A stretch of 64,000 nt of DNA from NCBI RefSeq assembly GCF_038025025.1, contig NW_027117342.1, forward strand, positions 1,550,001-1,614,000, written 5' to 3'. Under the pieces are notes generated by a model that saw nothing but the letters and a program-made list of their open reading frames with translations, did no database searches and was not told the origin of the DNA. Every line of letters starts with the position of its first letter. Position 1 is the first letter of the stretch. This DNA comes from Phyllosticta citribraziliensis. Taxonomy: Eukaryota. Of this stretch, positions 11,314 through 52,243 are shown in pieces. Position numbers and translations under genes: made by a program.

Positions 11314-11694
11314 CTTTGACCAGGAATCGGGAGGGTTACGAGCAGGACGAGAAGTCTCCCGGACGCGTCGACGAAATTCCTCACGCGTGAAGCTCCCAAA
11401 GCATGGTATGCTAGGCTGGCAGAGGTACAAATTTATCTGTGAGGCACAGCGACGGCCGGATTATTATTGTGCTCATGTCTGGCACTAGCTGCTCGTGGAG
11501 ATGGTGGGGTTGACCGCTGCGCCAAGATAGCGCTAGAGCTGTTATCTACCCAATCCGGGCAAGTCCCGAGTAATTCGCAAATGTCAAGGCCGGAGGTCTG
11601 CGAAGGGCGAGAGAAAAGAAAAAACTTTTGCTGCAAGCGAAGGACGGTTACAGGTTGATCGCTGGATTGAATTCTGCCTAAGGTCGGTCGGCCG

Positions 11695-13288
11695 CTACCG
11701 ATATCTGGAGAAGCAGAGACTAGCATTAGTGCCTCCGAACCCAAACGAGTTTGACAGCGCAACTTCGATGCTTTTTTCCTGTGCTGTTTTGGGTACGTAG
11801 TTGCAGTCAAAATCTTGAGGAGGATCTCCAGGCTCGTCAAGATTGAGCGTGGGGGGGAGAATGCCCTGCAAACTGTCAGCAAACTGGAATCAATAGACCA
11901 AATCTTACCACCTACGTGATGAAGCGCCAACACTGTGAAGATAGCCTCGACAGAACCGGCGGCACCAAGGAGGTGACCAATGGCTCCTTTGGTGCTACTG
12001 ATGTTGATGGATGAAGCTTTGCCGCGTCCTTCATGGCCAAGAAGCAAAGATTTGATTGCAGCATTCTCAGCTGCATCTCCTAGTAGCGTCGACGTGGCGT
12101 GAGCGTTGACATAGTCCACAGCACTTGGTGGAAGCTTTGCATTCTTCAGAGCCCTCTTCATGGCACGAAAAGGACCATCTCCGTCTTCTTTTGGAGCGGT
12201 CATGTGGTAGGCATCCGCAGACAGTCCATAGCCCTTCAGCTCGGCGTAAATCCTGGCATTTCGGGACTTTGCATGCTCAAGCTCCTAAGAATTGTGTTAG
12301 CCACGCTGGATACCACAATTAACAGTGATCAGCCATGTACCTCAAGAACCAAAACGCCAGCACCTTCACCAATGACAAATCCGGCTCTGTTCCTATCGAA
12401 TGGCCTTGATGACAGATGCGGCGTGTCATTCCAATCAGTCGCAAGACTTCTGGCTCGCGCAAAACCTGCCATGGCAAGTGGATGAATGCATGATTCAGCA
12501 CCGCCTGCTATCATGACGTCTGCATCACCATAGGCAATGAAGCGAGCAGCATCTCCGATTGCATGCGCACCTGTCGTGCATGCCGTCGTTGCCGCATGGT
12601 TTGGTCCTTTCAGCCCAAATCTCATTGAAATATGGCCCGCAGCCAGGTTGATGAGAAGGCGAGGCACAAACAGGGGGGAGACTTTTCGATAACCCTTGAC
12701 GGCCATCAGCATTAAATGGGTTTTGATGGAAATGTAACTCACTCCTTTTTCATAGGCCACTGAGGTCTCGTAAACATCTTCAAAACTCCCGATTCCAGAG
12801 CCAATGTAGACACCCTGGTCGATATTAGTGAGGGGCTCGCCATGCTCAGCAGCGCTTCTCACAGTGGTTTCCAATTCCTCTTCGGTCTTTGGGTGCCATT
12901 GAGCATCTTCAAGAGCCTCGTGGGAGGCAGCCATGGCATATTGGGCGAAAAGTGCCATTTTTCTTTCATCCTGCCTCGGCATCAGTTTTTGTTTTCACGC
13001 TGTTGGCTTCGACTTACACCCGGCTGGAGCCATTCTTTAGGATCCCATTCTCCGTCTTTCTTCACACCGGACGGAATCACTGCAGCAACTTGGCTAGGTA
13101 AAGCTGCGAATTGCGGACCTCTGTCTTTGACAGAAACAACGCCACAGTGGCCGTCGAGGAGACGCGACCAAGTTCGGCGGATGCCTGGAATAACAGTCAA
13201 CTTGTGAGCTGCGTCGTTGCATCAACCATCTCTTACCAACACCCAAAGGCGTCACGGCACCTAGACCAGTAACCACCACTCTCCGCAT
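11695..13288 (-). CDS. CEM1: Mitochondrial 3-oxoacyl-[ACP] synthase (KAS II/FabF-like), multi-exon
   Basis: [18 protein letters not shown]; catalytic [36 protein letters not shown]-terminal [13 protein letters not shown]. Confidence 0.93.
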
Positions 13289-24595: not shown

Positions 24596-26114
24596 ATGCT
24601 CACCCTCCGCAACACCCGTGCTCTATCAACAAAGGCACCACTGCTTCAGCGCCGGATTCTCGTCGCCTCCCCGAGAGCAGTCGCCGGCGGTCAGTTCCAA
24701 CATGCCAACTTCTCAAACAAGACGCCAGTGCGGACCGCGACGCATCCGCGCCAGGCCGCCGCCGCCGTGCCCGCAGCGGCTGGATATCAATCCATAACGG
24801 CAACCACTCCGCCCGCCAGCCCTCATTCGCCGCAGAATAATATCCTCGCAAAACTGCCAACTCCCGCTCTCCTCCGCAACCTGCTCATCCAAAACGTATC
24901 CGCCATCCCTCCGGTTCTTTCCTTCTTCCTCTTCTTCCTGAAGCGCTACTCCAACTTCATCACCAAGGCGCCCATCCTGCGCCAGGCACTCTACTACTTT
25001 TTCTACGTGCACTACTGCGCCGGCGCCACCAAGTCAGAAATCGGCCGCACCGTCGAGGATCTGAGGAAGTTGGGCTACAAGGGCGTCATCCTCAACTATG
25101 CCAAGGAGGTTGAGATGCCGGGCCTCTCCGTCAAGTCTGGCGCTGAAAAGGTCGCTCAGGCACAGGCCCTGCACGAGCAACAGGTCGGCCAATGGCTCGA
25201 CGGAACCGTCAAGGGCATTGCTTACGCACCGGCTGGCGACTACGTTGCCATCAAGTTTTCCGGAGCAGGCACCAGGGTCGTTGACATGCTGGAGAAGAAC
25301 CACGTCAAGCCGGACGACATTTTTGCCGATGCCCTCGACAAGGTCTGCGAGGCCGCACGCCAAAAGGGAGTCAATATTCTGGTGGATGCCGAGCACCAGT
25401 GCCAGCAGGCGGCCATCGACCGCTGGACCATGGACATGATGGAAAAGTACAACAAGGGTGACAATGTCGTCATCTTCAACACTTACCAAATGTAAGGCCA
25501 ACTCCCCCGTAGTCGGGCCAGCAACCATCTGACGTCGATATAGGTACCTCAAGGCCTCTCCCAGCATCCTGGCCCAGCACCTCGCCACGGCTGAATCCCG
25601 CAACTTCAACTTTGGAGCCAAGATTGTCCGCGGCGCATACCTCGGATCGGACCCCCGCAACGCCATCCACGACACCAAGGCCGACACGGATGCTGCTTTC
25701 GATGCTGCCGCTGAAAAGCTCGCAACTTACCACACGGCCAGCCCGCGGCCGTCCATCAAGGTCAGCACCGTCATTGGCTCGCACAACGCAACCTCGATCC
25801 GCAAGATTCGCGCACTGCGCCAACAGCAGGCGAGCGCCGGCCAGCCTGTCGCCGACGTTGTCTTCAGTCAGCTCATGGGCATGGCCGACGAGCTGTCGCT
25901 GTCGCTGACTGAAGCGGACACCGACGCTGGCTTTGTCCAGGGCGACTGCGGCGTCTACAAGTACGTCACCTGGGGCACCATGCAGGAGTGCATCATGTAC
26001 CTGGCGCGCCGGGCCGAGGAGAACCGCGATGCCGTGGCCTGCGCTCGCGACTCGCGCTCGCTGTTTTGGAATGAGCTGAAGAGGAGGTGGAGCCCCGCCA
26101 CGAAGAGGGCTTGA
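24596..26114 (+). CDS. PUT1: Proline dehydrogenase/oxidase (Put1/PrnD family), mitochondrial, 2 exons
   Basis: Presequence-like MLTLRNTRALSTK; HYCAG; ILVDAEHQ; NTYQMYLK; FGAKIVRGAYL; QLMGMADELS; YKYVTWG; YLARRAEEN. Confidence 0.9.
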
Positions 26115-26866
26115 TTGATGCGGTAGAATTGCTCCATTCGATTGACGTCTTTACGGTTTAGAAAGAAAGGTCTACGATGACGGGGATTGGCTTTTGGCAT
26201 GGCGGTACTGAAAACGGTTGAGCGATACTCTCAAGGGCTCGGGAAAGCGATGAAGTTATCTAGCACGGAGTTACGGAGTTTGGTTTGCTAGGCGTACGGG
26301 GAGTTGCATATTTTGGGCGTTCAATATCCAAGACTACCAATGACAAGACAGAGTTACAAGCACAAACATGGTCCATCGAATGACTTGCAAGCAGGTAGCA
26401 GAGTGGGCAACGCGAGGGACACGCTGATTCTACACATCGCAAGCCAAGGCCATGCTTTGAGTCCCTGCTCCAATGACGTGCCGTCAAATCAGGACGACAA
26501 AGCAACCTGACCCGGGCGTCCACCATACCCCTCCACACCTCCAAGATATCGACATGATGCTCGTACAAACCACACAAACCACCAAGCTCTTGCACCTATC
26601 CAGCTCGACGTTCCCCATCCATCTTCACCACCTCCACCTCTTCCGACCTCTGACCTGACATGGTGTGATACTCACTCCTTCTCCGCGTCTCCGCGTACAG
26701 CTCACGACAAGTCAACCCCTCCCCGCAAAGTATAAGGCAACGCGCTCTCCCCCATTCCCGCATCTTATCCTACATCCCCACTCCACGTGAACGCAAACAC
26801 CCACCACCAAAAAAACCCCCCCCACCAAGCCATACGCAGCAAACCACCATCAAACTCAACCCACCC

Positions 26867-27641
26867 ATGGAATCACCCATCGAGCAACAACCAACCCTGG
26901 ACAACCTCTCCCCTACGCCACCCCCAGGCGACGCGATCCGCGGGGCGACCCTCTTCGCCGCCGCGTGCGCGCACTGCCACAACGTGCAGCGGGGGCAGCC
27001 GCACAAGTTTGGCCCGACGCTCGACGCGGCGTACGGCGCGCGAGCGGGGCGGATACCTGGGAGCAGGCCGAGCGAGGCCATGAGGCGGGTTGGCGATGGC
27101 GGCGTCGTTTGGGGGCGGGACACGTTGGTGAGCCAGTGTTTTTCTTTCCTTTTCCCTTTTTCCTTTTTTCGCCTTGGTGTTTTTCTTGGAGAAAGAATGG
27201 GCGCGGCTGGAAGATGTTGGTCGAAGATGAGCAAGGCAGCTGCGGCGTGTTAACTGGGGTGCTCTATGATCCTGTTGTTTGGTTATTTTCTTCATCTTGA
27301 TTGGCTCTCGATGGCAGCGAAGGGGGGGGGAAAAAAGGAAAGATCGTGCTGATATCGAGGCCGCTGCCGCTATTGCGTCACTGCAGTTCGCATACTTGGC
27401 CGACTGTCGAGGCTACGTCCCCGGATCCAAGAAGCCGTTCAAGGGGGTGGAAAGTGAGAGGGACAGGATTGATATTGTGGCGTGAGTACAACAGGAGTGG
27501 CTGGACTCTCGGCCCCCCAACACCTCCTCCTTCCTCCTCGTGTCTGTCGTGATATGCACCAGGGCTGACCAGTCGAATGTCCTGCTCGTCAGGTTCTTGC
27601 AGGAAAAAGCGTCGTCGTCGTCGACCACCACCACGAAATAA
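26867..27641 (+). CDS. Divergent cytochrome c-like protein (class I fold, CxxCH present, axial Met absent), 3 exons 26867-27127, 27387-27481, 27593-27641
   Basis: Spliced product ...PGDAIRGATLFAAACAHCHNVQRGQPHKFGPTL...VVWGRDTL|FAYLADCRGYVPGSKKPFKGVESERDRIDIVA|FLQEKASSSSTTTTK* aligns end to end with mitochondrial cytochrome c; GTGAG donors, CAG acceptors, TATAA at about 26732. Confidence 0.82.
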
Positions 27642-27779: not shown

Positions 27780-28322
27780 TCAAGCCGTCACAACATCATA
27801 TCCAACCTTGGCCGCCATGCCCATGAGGCCAAGTTGGAGCAGCGAGGCCCAGAAGCCCAACAGTCTGCCCTTGCCATCCTCCTTGTCCTTGCGCGTGTAT
27901 CCCGTGGCGTACAAGACGCGGCCAACACCCCAAAAAGCGCCCATGATGCTGGATGCGACGGGGAACTTGACGCCAGCCACGAACAGGGCCGTCAGGAACG
28001 ACGCGTGGTTCTCGATGAAGTTGTAGTGCGCCCGCTGCGCGCAGTTGAACAGGTGCATGGCCTGTTGCTTGTTGACGTCGGACTCGGCGCGGATCTGCTC
28101 GTTCGAGGCGTATTGCGCTGGGTACTTGACGCCGGCGGCCTTGCGGAAGGGACCCACGCGGAACGCGTGCCAGGTGCTGAGGAAGAGCGACCCCGTGGCC
28201 GTGAGGAGCACGTAGCTGCGCAGCTGTGGGTAAGAGACAGGTACAGGTGGTGGCTTGGGGGCGACGTCGAGCGATGCTTACCCGTACTCCTTGGGGATGT
28301 CGATTGTCATGAGAGGCGCCAT
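27780..28322 (-). CDS. MAPEG-family microsomal glutathione S-transferase (MGST3-like), 2 exons
   Basis: IPKEYG|YVL; RKAAGVKYP; FNCAQRAHYNFIEN; GRVLYATGY. Confidence 0.92.
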
Positions 28323-47367: not shown

Positions 47368-49470
47368 TCACTTGCTCTCAAAGTACTCCTCAATCCTCTC
47401 GATAATGTCAGCTTTCTTCCCTACAACAGAGACGTGCTTCGCATGTGCCCAGTCTTTGAGGTTGGCCACTGTAAACTAGGAACGGTTAGCCTTCAACTTA
47501 AAAGGTATTCCCATGTTGTCACCACTTACCTTGTTCAGAGTTCCCTTTTCCCAAGCCTTCTTCATCTCGGCATCGTCAACTCCACCCGCACTTCCATTCT
47601 TACTGCCAGCACCGTTTTCGGTCTTCATTCGTTTGGGGACGGACTTGGGAAGGTCTTCCTCTGCTGTCCTCTTCTTTGAGACTGACCAGACGTTGAATTC
47701 TTCGTCCACGAGTTTGCCCCAGCTGACAATCTGTTCGCCAACACGCTTGATAATCTGTCTGTGCCTGGGAATCGTCTTATCCTCTGGCTGCTCCGGCAGC
47801 TCATCCTCCAGCGCAATCGCTTGCAAGATGCGATAGAACCACTGCAAGCTTGGATTTGGATACTTCGCGGGATCGTACTCGCCCTTGGGCAGGGTGAGGT
47901 TCTGGACAATCTCGCGCATGTAGTCGACGGTAGTGTCTGGAGCCCGCACCAACGTCGTCTCTGGGATCTGGCGAATGTCGTCAACATATGGGAGAGGAAT
48001 GGCCCAGAGACCTGGTGGACGGATCTGCTCGTTTCTATCACCGAGCTTCTCGGCCCCTGGAACAAGCGCCGCGAGTGTGGGTACGGCGTTGCGACGAGGA
48101 ATGAACCAAGCCAAGCCGAACTTCTGGTCCTTGAGCAGCTTTTGCTGGAGCGCAGAAAAGACGCGCGTGGATCCAACAAAGTCGGATTCGGAAGGGTAAA
48201 TTAATGTAGGTGAGCGCAGGTTCGCCCAGTCGGGAAGGCAGGCCATGGGCTTGAAGCCAATGATTCGGATGACAGGGTCGCCAAAGTAGCGGATCTTTTT
48301 GGTTTCTTCTTCGGTAAAGGCAATGCTCTCACCGCCGAATTTGTAAGCCTTTCGAATCTCTTCTTTCTTGATCTCGCGGGCTGTGTCTTCTGCGACTCTT
48401 GAGGACGAGCCTACTGCGATTTGTGGCTTTTCGCCATTCAACCAGATGTAGCAGCTCCGTACCCTCTCCTGACGTTTGATCAAAATGTAGCCTTTGACAC
48501 CAACCTTCAAGCCTGGGCCAATCTCGAATGGAAGGCTGAAAAGCGCTCGACGAGGGACAGCTTTGGAATTGATGTTTGAAATGAGAGACTGGAGAAGGTT
48601 GATACCTTCACCTCTTTCGAGGGGCTGGGCCGTGTTTGTCACTGGAGCTGGGGCCTCAAGGTCGCCTAATGGCGGACGGTAGACAATGTTCTGCGCACGT
48701 TAGTCTAGCCTTGGTGGAAGGCGAACATAAATCTTACATCGTAAAACTTCGTTCTGTCAAAGCCACGATCTGGATGCGAGATAGGGAAGAGCTCGATGAC
48801 GACGCCCAAATCATACAAGTCCTTGGCTCTGACAGCTGCAGCGGAACACAAACTCTTGTCATCAGCGTGAGGGTTGTCGTTATCAGTAACAAGAAACAAT
48901 CTCCTGGACGAAAAGTTGGGTGCCTTTGTCGTAAAGATTTGGTTTGCGCAAAAGAGGACATTGGCCATGGAGACAGGCTCCTCTGCTGGAACCAGCAACT
49001 TGTGTGCTTCCTCCTCATCCTCAACGAGATTCCTCAGCCTCTTGACGTCCAGAGCTGCAGGAACCTCTAGGTCTGTCAACAGGTAGCAGTGTGGGTATGC
49101 AAGTCCTCCTCCATTGCCAGATCCTTCATCCTGAAACCTTGACTCTTCGGTGCCGAAAAGCAAGACTCCCATCATGTCGGTGGGATGCGAGATGATGCGT
49201 TGCTGCATGAGCTGATAGGCACATTTGAGGGCGGCAGATGTGGGAGAGTCGCGATCGGCTTTCTTCGCGTCGGAGAGAGACGGCTTCTTGAGCATGGATT
49301 TGCTGACGTCGATTGCGAATAGCACGGCATCTTTGACGGTCTTGTAGCCCTGTGCTTCTTGTGAGCTTCAGCAGCGTAGCTTGTAAGAGAGGACGTACGG
49401 TCTCGTCGACGGCTTCCTCGTCCTCGTCATCTTCCTCATCTTGTTTGTAGCGATCTTGCGGGTCTGCCAT
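47368..49470 (-). CDS. KU70: Ku70, NHEJ DNA end-binding subunit, multi-exon with C-terminal SAP domain
   Basis: [69 protein letters not shown]; final exon LTVANLKDW...KKADIIERI. Confidence 0.96.
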
Positions 49471-49915
49471 GGCGACTCTATCTCAGGGGCGGAGGTTGGA
49501 TGGACGGGTACGTTGCAAGAGCAGCAGCACCTTAGGTTTGTCGCGAGACGCGGACGTCATTCTGGGCGCGACGGGACCTGGAAGGCAGCAGCAAGGGCAC
49601 GGGCCACACAAACGCGCGATCATGTGCTGACTTAGTCATCAACCGTCCAATTATTCACCTAGCTTGCGATGGCGAAGCAGTCTAACGCTAGACCAAGACC
49701 AGCATCTTTCTCTCCCATCAAAACACCGCCCACCTCCACTGCACTTCACACTATGCTGCAGGTCACATCGTTGAGATCACATCCGGATACGTCTCGGTAC
49801 TACGTCATCATGGCCAGGCGAGACCCTCCCCGCTCTGTTTGGCCCCATGTTGAAACTTCTTCGCCAAAAGATATCTTACCACCTGCTTCAAGACACTTTT
49901 TCCATTTAATATGCT

Positions 49916-52243
49916 ATGAATCCCTCGCATTCATTGACGACGAGCGGCCATCCCCTGACCCTTTGCCGCTCATGTTCAAAGCTTGATTTTGCAAGCCTCA
50001 CGAGACCTCCAATACCTTGTCGGAAGCCGCTTCCTTGCGACACGGCACTCGAGGATGAAGACATCATAGTTCACGCGGAGGAAGAAAATCCGAAACACTT
50101 GCCGCTTGGTTCCTTGGATGAGATTCGGAGCCGTCGTTATGAATGCGGGCTGTGTTCTTTAGTCGCCGATTGCCTAGACCAGGAACCTTCCGATGCGGCA
50201 GGAACTTGTCGCCTCATCGAGCACACGGAGATTTGCTCTTTTGAGCTTCCAGACGGATTCCATGCCTCTGCTCCGACTTTTGCGCATTTTCATTACACTC
50301 GCCCAAGTGTTCTTTTCGATCCCTCGAGCACGAACAATTTCCAAGGACCTGTTCTTCCATGGGAATTAAAAAGGGCGAGCAAGAACCGAGCGCAAAGAAT
50401 CATTCAATTTCAGATCAAAGCCAACAACAAAGGTCACTCTACCTCTCGAAGCGAAGAGCAAAACATCATCGATGGACTCGGTGGCAGACAGGTCACCGAG
50501 CAAGTCGATGCATACTTGCTCAAGACTTGGCTTCACCTGTGCGAAGACCATCATGGACCACAGTGTAGGGAGCCTATGCGTTTTCCTTCGACACAGGAGA
50601 CCGGACCTGCATTAGTGATCGACGTGACAGAGTCTTGCATTATCGACACACCCTTGAGCTGCAGATACGTTGCATTGTCCTACGTCTGGGGATCAGCGTC
50701 AGTGTTCAGACATTTGAAAGAAAACTCAGAGAGGATTCGAAAGCCGGGCTCGTTGGAAGAAGTGCAACTGCCTGATACAATCCGGGACTCGATGCTACTA
50801 GTCCGAGAGATAGGCGAGCGCTACCTGTGGGTCGACTCCATCTGCATTATCCAAGATGATTTCAAAACCCAACAGTCCCAAATTCAGCGCATGGGGTCCA
50901 TTTACTCCAAGGCTATCTTTACTATTGTCGTGGCTTTCGGCGACGGTGCCAACAGTGGCTTGCCTGGCATCCGCCCGGGAACTCGGAAGCAAGTGCAGAA
51001 AAAGCTGTGTATTGCTGACAATGAGCTGCTAACTGTCATTGACAACGATGACGTAAACGAAGGTATCGAAGACTCGATCTGGGCGATGAGGGCCTGGACC
51101 TTCCAAGAGCGACTTCTTTCCAAGAGGGTTCTTGTATTCACCGAGACACAAATCTATTGGAACTGTCGCTCAGCTGTATTCTCCGAGGAGTTTGCAGCAG
51201 AACAAATCAAGAATGTTTCGTACCATCACCTGTCTATCGGTCAATCGTACCTCCACCGCGATATACCAGACCAGGAATTGGCCCCAGGCGAGTTTTGCGA
51301 ACTATATCTTTACATTTGCGCGGCGTATCTTCAGCGTCGGCTCACTTACCAGTCCGACATCCTCAACGCTTTCGCTGGAATTGCAGAGATTCTCTCCATG
51401 CGCCAGAACGACATCTTTATCTGGGGACTTCCCCAGGCACACTTTTCCGATGCGTTGACGTGGAGGTTTACCGGATACCACACGCGTCACGGCGAGAAAA
51501 TCCCTATCATGACACCCAACGGCCACGATCCCGAAAACATCTCGATCCCGTCTTGGAGCTGGGCAGCTTGGTCTGGCGAAGGCAACCTTCCTTGGCTGGG
51601 GACTGGGTGGTTGAATCCGTGGGCCCCCAACGGTATCGAGACAACAGCCGTGATCAATTTCAACATTGTGGGTAACGCGGGCAAGTTGGTCAGAATCCAA
51701 GAGAGACTCCCCGCGACTCACGGCCACACCAAATCAGAGCGCCTACTTGCCATGTGGAGGGATTTTGATCATCGGAATGACACACTAGGCCACTGTTGTG
51801 ACATCACCTTGAGCATCGGCCAAATTCACTGTTGGACCAGCATGGCAAGACTCCGCGTCGTCCGAAAGGAAGTGGAGAAGCCACAGTCATCGGAGTGCGA
51901 CATCTATCTCGCAGAAGATGACCCCGACCTCCCCGCGGATGAGTGGTTTCTGTCAGGCATGAAAACAGACTCGACGTCACACATCCATGGGGAGATATTG
52001 GAGCCAAACTCCAAACTCCGGGCTCTGAAATCAGAAACTTACAGCAGCGGGGTGGATTTGATCTGGCTTGATTTTGTAGTAGTAGCAAAGACAGAGGCAT
52101 ACGACTCGGAAAGTGCAAGCTTGAAGCTCCTTGCCGTGGAGTGGAAGGACGGTGTTGCCCATCGTTTGGGCCTTGCGTCGATTCTGGAACCGGCATGGAT
52201 AAGCGTGAAGAACAGGCAATGGAGGCATGTTGTTCTGGGGTAG
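49916..52243 (+). CDS. HET-domain (heterokaryon incompatibility) protein, intronless, 775 aa
   Basis: YVALSYVWG, RYLWVDSICIIQDD, IQRMGSIYSKA, RAWTFQERLLS, SDILNAFAGI, IPSWSWAAW; N-terminal LCRSC...CGLC. Confidence 0.92.
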   Translation: MNPSHSLTTSGHPLTLCRSCSKLDFASLTRPPIPCRKPLPCDTALEDEDIIVHAEEENPKHLPLGSLDEIRSRRYECGLCSLVADCLDQEPSDAAGTCRLIEHTEICSFELPDGFHASAPTFAHFHYTRPSVLFDPSSTNNFQGPVLPWELKRASKNRAQRIIQFQIKANNKGHSTSRSEEQNIIDGLGGRQVTEQVDAYLLKTWLHLCEDHHGPQCREPMRFPSTQETGPALVIDVTESCIIDTPLSCRYVALSYVWGSASVFRHLKENSERIRKPGSLEEVQLPDTIRDSMLLVREIGERYLWVDSICIIQDDFKTQQSQIQRMGSIYSKAIFTIVVAFGDGANSGLPGIRPGTRKQVQKKLCIADNELLTVIDNDDVNEGIEDSIWAMRAWTFQERLLSKRVLVFTETQIYWNCRSAVFSEEFAAEQIKNVSYHHLSIGQSYLHRDIPDQELAPGEFCELYLYICAAYLQRRLTYQSDILNAFAGIAEILSMRQNDIFIWGLPQAHFSDALTWRFTGYHTRHGEKIPIMTPNGHDPENISIPSWSWAAWSGEGNLPWLGTGWLNPWAPNGIETTAVINFNIVGNAGKLVRIQERLPATHGHTKSERLLAMWRDFDHRNDTLGHCCDITLSIGQIHCWTSMARLRVVRKEVEKPQSSECDIYLAEDDPDLPADEWFLSGMKTDSTSHIHGEILEPNSKLRALKSETYSSGVDLIWLDFVVVAKTEAYDSESASLKLLAVEWKDGVAHRLGLASILEPAWISVKNRQWRHVVLG

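Follow-up and report, generated by a model that had tools for sequence, protein, structure and literature searches.

A cytochrome c paralogue of Phyllosticta citribraziliensis with lysine in place of Met80 and its relatives, a probable non-respiratory subfamily in fungi

Results

Among the residues that define eukaryotic cytochrome c is Met80. We analyzed a stretch of 64,000 nucleotides from Phyllosticta citribraziliensis (the window) and found that it encodes an intact cytochrome c in which Met80 is replaced by Lys. Lys80 proteins were found in at least 15 named fungal species, and the family is real, conserved and apparently undescribed in the literature covered. Judged from sequence, a non-respiratory fungal cytochrome c subfamily is probably the right reading. 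The initial annotation had proposed such a haem-c subfamily, and the proposal gained partial support from the intact spliced gene, a separate CYC1, orthologues without Met80 and selection in relatives.

Gene structure and transcripts

The gene, its parts and its nearest neighbours are as follows.

24596-26114, + strand: proline dehydrogenase gene, upstream neighbour on the same strand
26731..26736, + strand: TATA-like hexamer read from the sequence, approximately 135 nt 5' of the start codon; putative promoter element
26867..27127, + strand: exon 1, 87 codons; Pro-rich extension, N-terminal helix with G6, L9 and F10, CXXCH, and W59
26966..26980, + strand: haem attachment motif CAHCH (Cys14, Cys17, His18), read from the sequence
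27128..27386, + strand: intron 1, 259 nt, GT-AG, phase 0 after residue 64
27387..27481, + strand: exon 2, haem-crevice loop, residues 65-96
27405..27407, + strand: Cys71 codon (Pro in the canonical protein), Phyllosticta only
27432..27437, + strand: Lys80-Pro81 codons in place of Met80-Ala81, the conserved mark of the family
27482..27592, + strand: intron 2, 111 nt, GT-AG, phase 2 in Ala96
27593..27641, + strand: exon 3, end of the C-terminal helix, Ser/Thr tail and stop codon
27780-28322, - strand: MAPEG (microsomal glutathione transferase-like) gene, convergent, ending 139 nt from the cytochrome stop codon

Two introns had been proposed to restore a stop-free cytochrome c, and this was confirmed. 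The joined exons gave a 405-nt frame whose sole stop is terminal and whose product is 134 aa long, with branch-type sites at 27348 (intron 1) and 27564 (intron 2), and no ATG was present across 26661-26866, 5' of the start codon. The public record P0001 (134 aa, Phyllosticta citribraziliensis), labelled 'cytochrome c-like domain-containing protein', contains the same three exon translations in the same order. Both predicted junctions, 27127/27387 and 27481/27593, were present as GT..AG joints on the + strand in contigs from two of the three runs (two studies), while the contig of the third run, from a related organism, retained both introns. None of the runs with the window gene was recorded as RNA, and they were judged by spliced joints alone; they contain cDNA, since the intron of the neighbouring MAPEG gene (28216-28281) was also spliced in all three.

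Unspliced and spliced contigs covered intron 1 at depths of 41 versus 51 and 856 versus 916, and intron 2 at 55 versus 81 and 1499 versus 975. Intron retention, DNA in the samples or antisense transcription running on from the convergent gene may explain the unspliced contigs. Because the MAPEG gene ends so close by, an antisense overlap of its transcript with the cytochrome gene is possible, and such read-through could cover the cytochrome introns. The retained introns were therefore not read as a form of regulation, as contig depth is also not a measure of expression. If intron 2 were kept, translation would stop after 119 aa and the C-terminal helix would be cut short; several public annotations of the gene give this 119-aa form. 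The Phyllosticta annotations (P0004, P0005, P0006, P0009, P0010, P0016 and P0017) place the intron 1 acceptor and exon 3 differently and give forms of 119-158 aa; the observed splice junctions support the 134-aa model of the window gene.

The upstream proline dehydrogenase gene ends approximately 750 nt before the cytochrome gene, and one run's contig spans the gap between it and exon 1 unbroken. The genome has two proline dehydrogenase genes, the other being on contig C6. The other window genes were ordinary-looking, among them those at 49910-52243 (+), 47476-49367 (-) and 11433-12994 (-); their products include a HET-domain protein, a Ku70/Ku80 subunit, a beta-ketoacyl synthase, GH16 and GT2 proteins, a carboxylesterase, an MBOAT acyltransferase and a Cid1-type poly(A) polymerase.

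Residues, charge and fold of the window protein

Two PF00034 matches were found in the genome. One is the window gene, and the other, on contig C1, is a canonical CYC1 that has Met80 and whose crevice motif is intact, so the separate canonical gene that the initial annotation had called for does exist. Two haem lyase loci were also found. The window protein and CYC1 shared 39 of 103 core residues (38%). Alignment with human cytochrome c required a single 3-residue insertion and placed Lys103 at Met80, Pro104 at position 81 and Cys94 at Pro71. Compared with both its own CYC1 and the human protein, the window protein kept CAHCH, G29-P30, W59, Y67-L68, P76-G77, F82 and R91, and it was changed at M80K, A81P, P71C, R38A, Y48P and N52M; every substitution on the earlier residue list was borne out by the alignment. 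The predicted Pro-rich N-terminal extension of 20 aa was likewise present, and within the family it is specific to Phyllosticta. The only core Met is at position 52, and no His was found in residues 65-96. As a further observation, the haem attachment motif has the form CxHCH, with His16 (codon at window position 26972-26974, + strand) where CYC1 has Gln; this form occurs in Phyllosticta, Helotiales, Xylariales, Auriscalpium and P0148, but not in Neofusicoccum.

The protein is a member of the class I cytochrome c fold (PF00034), as indicated by the profile match, CXXCH and the docked N- and C-terminal helices of its modelled fold. Exon 1 alone scored 28.5 bits against a cut-off of 21.3 (E 4e-6), and the PDB sequence search gave similarity to solved cytochromes c at E 2e-22, with all alignments shown being to Met80 proteins. 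Foldseek with an AlphaFold2 model gave E 2e-7 and a TM score of 0.76 normalised by target length, and all 50 of the 50 matches listed were mitochondrial-type cytochrome c entries. The model predicts helices at 23-35, 84-92 and 111-129 in a cytochrome c fold, from an input alignment that included canonical cytochrome c rows. It is haem-free with a mean pLDDT of 63.8, residues 98-102, directly before Lys80, falling below 50, and is therefore uninformative on haem ligation. NCBIfam gave no match above cut-off for the window protein, and Atlas searches returned generic cytochrome c clusters only.

PMC10175771 gives four features of respiratory cytochromes c, one of them being a Lys and a Phe in the N-terminal helix through which haem lyase recognises the protein. 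The window protein lacks two of the four, Met80 and the crevice 70-79 with Lys72, and has CXXCH with His18; its N-terminal helix kept G6, L9 and F10, with Arg for Lys5. Crevice residues 70-79 were identical to CYC1 at only 4 of 10 positions (Lys72 is Arg, Pro71 is Cys and Thr78 is Ser). On the docking face, K13 (R13 in its own CYC1) was changed to A, K72 to R, K73 to G, K86 to E and K87 to S. The earlier statement that several docking lysines are lost agrees with these five positions; K27 and K79 were kept. The core net charge was +5, compared with +6 in CYC1, the protein remaining basic since many Lys residues became Arg.

These data bear on whether the protein could be a condition-specific backup carrier of respiration, comparable to yeast iso-2 cytochrome c. 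The kept fold and net positive charge would suit such a carrier. However, Met80 is missing, the crevice is largely altered, K13, K73, K86 and K87 are lost, and a protein of about -140 mV, the potential of Lys-ligated forms (PMC12188557), could not take electrons from cytochrome c1. We consider a backup carrier highly improbable.

Distribution of Lys80 proteins

A search for orthologues without Met80 across ascomycetes had been proposed, and such orthologues were present in three ascomycete classes. The family records that word-index searches turned up at first were from Phyllosticta only (3 of 6 and 6 of 43 candidates), six species being covered once cluster members are counted. In a profile search over 1.84 billion representatives, the matches listed were crowded by tandem-repeat c2-type proteins, which ranked high because scores add over repeats and took up most of the 150 listed, so that the single-domain members recovered are a lower bound; per-domain rescoring then exposed single-domain relatives without Met80. 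Outside Phyllosticta, Lys80 was carried by Neofusicoccum parvum (Dothideomycetes), six Helotiales species (Leotiomycetes) and one Xylariales species (Sordariomycetes), and a basidiomycete, Auriscalpium vulgare, had Lys80-Pro81. Lineages of the carriers were looked up, except for Coleophoma cylindrospora. Helotiales-type genes were also found on three soil-type metagenome contigs (three of seven motif matches, the other four being unrelated), at loci 1.6-2.5 kb long. In the motif scan of prokaryotic genomes, none of the seven matches was a cytochrome, the exact motif being too strict to recover divergent members, for example the proteins of Neofusicoccum and Auriscalpium.

Among 464 domains from 294 proteins, a set biased by its queries and not a census, position 80 was Met in 410 and Lys in 23; a different residue stood there in 11, a gap in 10, and the remaining 10 were without the His18 column. 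All 23 Lys80 domains were from named fungal records. The distribution of the family looks patchy, most fungal groups having yielded no member in these searches, which are of a kind that does not establish absence. Several members are annotated as plain 'cytochrome c' or 'iso-1-cytochrome c', labels that are probably wrong in function. No description of a fungal Lys80 cytochrome c was found in the literature searched, a body from which subscription papers were mostly absent.

Two candidates for membership were rejected. The multi-stretch matches P0018-P0035, considered as a fused family, are tandem-repeat c2-type proteins, nearly all with axial Met, and the Pneumocystis match P0172 is canonical with Met80 present. 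P0018-P0035 and many further matches contain two to five tandem class I cytochrome c domains and are apparently alphaproteobacterial; one of the ten looked up was labelled Pseudomonadota. Their linkers are long and made of Ala, Pro and Glu, and several of the proteins have one repeat without axial Met, such repeats carrying Ala, Thr, Leu, Val, Gln or Ser.

Conservation within the family

Conservation was counted over 14 ascomycete family rows. Lys80 and an aromatic residue at 82 were found in all 14, Lys79 in 13 and Pro81 in 12; Trp59, Phe28, Ser49 and Asp70 were in 14 each and Tyr67 in 12, whereas Arg38, Tyr48, Asn52 and Pro71 were in none. The neighbours of Lys80 varied, with K/R at position 79, P/T at 81 and C/T/W at 71. 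Met52 was confined to Botryosphaeriales and Met64 to Helotiales, so that no substitute Met ligand was conserved across the family. In the Helotiales, Xylariales and Neofusicoccum rows, Lys5 was replaced by Arg and Phe10 by Tyr, changes that may bear on recognition by haem lyase.

The loss of the propionate contacts R38, Y48 and N52 throughout raises the reading that the protein has no haem in vivo, or a structural haem only, and acts on haem lyase or the respiratory complexes as a scaffold, decoy or regulator. A basic-aromatic C-terminal tail in Helotiales and Xylariales would suit membrane or partner binding in that case. Against it, CXXCH, G29-P30, L32, W59, L68 and F/Y82 were kept in all 14 rows, as in a haem-filled fold, and we regard this reading as very unlikely. 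The tail itself consists of K-W-F-G plus one or two mostly hydrophobic residues, is carried by P0046, P0283, P0285, P0286, P0287, P0171, L015, L017 and L018 and is lacking in canonical cytochrome c; it is a possible membrane anchor or targeting signal.

Position 71 was Cys in five rows (Phyllosticta), Trp in two (Neofusicoccum) and Thr in seven (Helotiales and Xylariales), and one of two P. citrichinensis records had Phe. A new distal Cys, which the initial annotation had stressed, is thus not a feature of the family at large. Since Cys71 is confined to Phyllosticta, it appears secondary, and from these alignments Lys80, not Cys71, is what defines the family.

In the Botryosphaeriales, ferric haem could still be bound by a Cys thiolate, that of Cys71 in Phyllosticta and of Cys78 in Neofusicoccum, with Lys80 ligation or an open site upon reduction and an even lower potential. 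Two studies provide precedents: His71 displaces Met80 in ferric yeast cytochrome c P71H (PMC3210782), and thiolates near the iron give thiolate-ligated ferric variants (PMC12188557). In addition, a distal-side Cys was gained in both lineages at different positions. Cys at position 78 is one such thiolate site. Nevertheless, Cys is absent from 7 of the 14 rows (Helotiales and Xylariales), a thiolate could not be the ancestral mechanism of the family, and the Phe71 record of P. citrichinensis also argues against it. We judge this alternative improbable, though less so than a haem-free or structural role.

Selection and origin

Across 95 codons, two metagenomic Lys80 genes differed by 19 synonymous and no non-synonymous changes (dS 0.36, dN 0). 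Against the third metagenomic gene, dN was 0.054-0.055 at dS of at least 1.5, giving dN/dS of about 0.04 and lower. These three Helotiales-type genes are the basis of the estimates, as distinct from the window gene and its Phyllosticta orthologues; the Lys80 relatives they represent are under purifying selection, and the low dN/dS sought by the initial annotation was obtained to that extent, for relatives and not for the window gene itself. In the contig of the related organism, 12 of 13 indels were listed, and these 12 lay in the upstream flank and introns, with none in exons.

These results bear on whether the gene is a decaying duplicate under relaxed selection. Its 38% identity to CYC1, long branches, unspliced contigs and patchy distribution could be read as decay. 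However, the gene was intact in records of six Phyllosticta species, with 86-96% core identity for the four compared; one pair of relatives showed no amino acid change at the dS of 0.36 given above, Lys80 was kept across three classes, and GC3 of the window gene was 0.79, close to the 0.83 of CYC1. We find decay scarcely credible, the least probable of the readings considered.

In a tree of 48 rows, based on an alignment of 112 columns with long branches, the 10 ascomycete Lys80 rows (Botryosphaeriales, Helotiales and Xylariales) formed one clade (98/93), and membership of Auriscalpium in it was not rejected (p-AU 0.27). The Neofusicoccum branch had a length of 1.05. P0148, a 150-aa cytochrome c with Thr80, no core Met and a net charge of -4, branched beside the clade (86/84) and is possibly another Met-less lineage. 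The clade did not fall within the canonical eukaryotic rows, and its placement inside the group of ten CYC1-like rows nearest the genome's CYC1 was rejected (p-AU 0.016); this outer position may reflect long-branch attraction or a truly old duplication. It also lay outside the 16 bacterial-type rows, with weak support (76/72).

Intron positions were informative. The phase-0 intron after residue 64 was common to the window gene, the three metagenomic genes and CYC1, where it is intron 3. A phase-1 intron in Gly1 was common to CYC1 and L017, with the acceptor also in L015 and L018. The Ala96 intron, which the genome's CYC1 lacks, occurs in the window gene as well as in the three metagenomic genes. 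The shared positions point to duplication of a fungal CYC1 rather than transfer from bacteria, and the subfamily would have arisen when an intron-bearing CYC1 was duplicated and Met80 then became Lys. A horizontal origin from alphaproteobacterial c2/c550 is disfavoured by the weakly supported placement outside the bacterial rows, the introns shared with CYC1 and the lack of cytochromes among the seven prokaryotic motif matches.

Discussion

A putative His/Lys cytochrome of low potential

With slightly better than even confidence, we favour a reading as a mitochondrial haem-c protein in which His18 and Lys80 ligate the ferric haem as a 'locked alkaline form' of about -140 mV, which bc1 would not reduce and whose role would be that of a low-potential carrier or a redox-gated ligand switch. 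Respiratory cytochrome c has a midpoint potential of approximately +250 mV, Lys is a weak ligand of Fe(II) haem, and the loss of R38, Y48 and N52 would be expected to lower the haem potential.

The genome's cytochrome c haem lyase would attach haem to CXXCH in the intermembrane space, as suggested by the kept G6, L9, F10 and CXXCH. Lys80 would be the sixth ligand of ferric haem, giving the alkaline form in a natural protein, with Pro81 stiffening the loop at Lys80. Such ligation is suggested by the conservation of Lys80 in the family and by Paracoccus c550 M100K, where Lys at the axial Met position ligates haem (PMC4476040). Ferric haem at neutral pH prefers Lys over Met, and in M100K c550 stability is higher and peroxidase activity is lowered 20-fold (PMC7193304). 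Yeast cytochrome c conformers with Lys ligation have potentials of -137 to -145 mV (PMC12188557). The midpoint potential of the fungal protein is predicted to be roughly -100 to -200 mV. Cytochrome c1 would be unable to reduce a protein of so low a potential, and hence no shuttling between complexes III and IV would be expected. What follows is the least certain step. Electrons would come from a low-potential donor, a flavoprotein located in the intermembrane space or at the inner membrane, and the neighbouring proline dehydrogenase, a flavoenzyme, is a candidate partner. Reduction or acidification would open the sixth site to O2, NO or CO, since Lys binds Fe(II) weakly.

Alternatively, Lys80 could line an open pocket or bind a partner. 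In the fuller form of this rival, which we consider rather unlikely yet the foremost of the alternatives, the haem is five-coordinate or water-bound, and the protein binds ligands, handles nitrite or NO, or is peroxidase-like. Pro81, the loss of Pro71 and the changes at N52 and T78 remodel the whole crevice, cyt c-2 provides a eukaryotic precedent for a five-coordinate paralogue, and the relative P0148 has Thr80. The preference of ferric haem for Lys over Met and the low activity of M100K c550 (PMC7193304) weigh against it. As for a peroxidase, native five-coordinate Plasmodium cyt c-2 shows basal activity only (10.64898/2025.12.23.696199), and no distal His/Arg catalytic pair was conserved in the family rows. 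The peroxidase role, one of several functions suggested initially, is now the least favoured of them.

A broader proposal joins these parts: a 'permanently alkaline' His/Lys monohaem family that provides fungal mitochondria with a second route, for low-potential electron transfer or redox-gated gas sensing, possibly as old as the Dikarya given that the basidiomycete Auriscalpium also has Lys80-Pro81, and within which a thiolate switch would have been gained separately by two lineages of the Botryosphaeriales. We hold this combination tentatively, at a little under an even chance. If His/Lys ligation is true, the family would provide a natural example of the Lys-ligated 'alkaline' state, which until now has been studied in mutants and at high pH, and the cellular role of that state would become testable using a small protein. 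It would further imply an unmapped low-potential redox partner in fungal mitochondria.

Comparison with known cytochromes

The window protein resembles mitochondrial respiratory cytochrome c (CYC1/CYCS; PF00034) in its fold, CXXCH, F10, W59, Y67, P76-G77, F82 and R91, and it resembles the genome's own CYC1 in shared intron positions and overall identity. It differs from respiratory cytochrome c by Lys at 80, Pro at 81 and Cys at 71, by the loss of R38, Y48, N52 and most of the lysines that dock on bc1 and oxidase, and by extensions gained at both termini. Alphaproteobacterial cytochrome c2/c550 (NF043008) shares the class I fold, although the match of the window protein was weak (46.6 bits against a cut-off of 240); axial Met is present in the great majority of the c2/c550 domains compared, and these proteins carry export signals or membrane anchors and are without the spliceosomal introns shared by the fungal genes.

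Plasmodium falciparum cyt c-2 (PF3D7_1311700) is non-respiratory, with a potential of -278 mV and unknown function (10.64898/2025.12.23.696199; PMC10175771). It is described in PMC10175771 as the most divergent eukaryotic homologue known, and it keeps Met80. Like apicomplexan cyt c-2, the fungal protein is a divergent second cytochrome c that accompanies the canonical protein, and its crevice is remodelled. Unlike the fungal family, however, cyt c-2 keeps its axial Met, is five-coordinate when oxidised and is found only in Apicomplexa and Vitrella; in the fungal family, Met is lost altogether and Lys is offered, without a crevice His such as that inserted in cyt c-2. The reported ranges set the two apart and suggest separate origins.

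Natural His/Lys haem proteins, namely an NrfH haem and the globin HGbRL, pair a distal Lys with a proximal His (PMC4476040), as is predicted here; these are bacterial and have multihaem or globin folds, not that of a monohaem class I cytochrome c. The closest likeness is to Paracoccus versutus c550 M100K and the Lys73/Lys79 alkaline conformers of the yeast protein, which are class I folds with Lys at the position of the Met or close to it. From this likeness, a low potential and low peroxidase activity are predicted (PMC4476040, PMC7193304 and PMC12188557). Those forms are mutants or are induced by pH, whereas the fungal Lys is natural, fixed and under selection. By analogy, it is most likely that the window protein works like these engineered or alkaline His/Lys forms.
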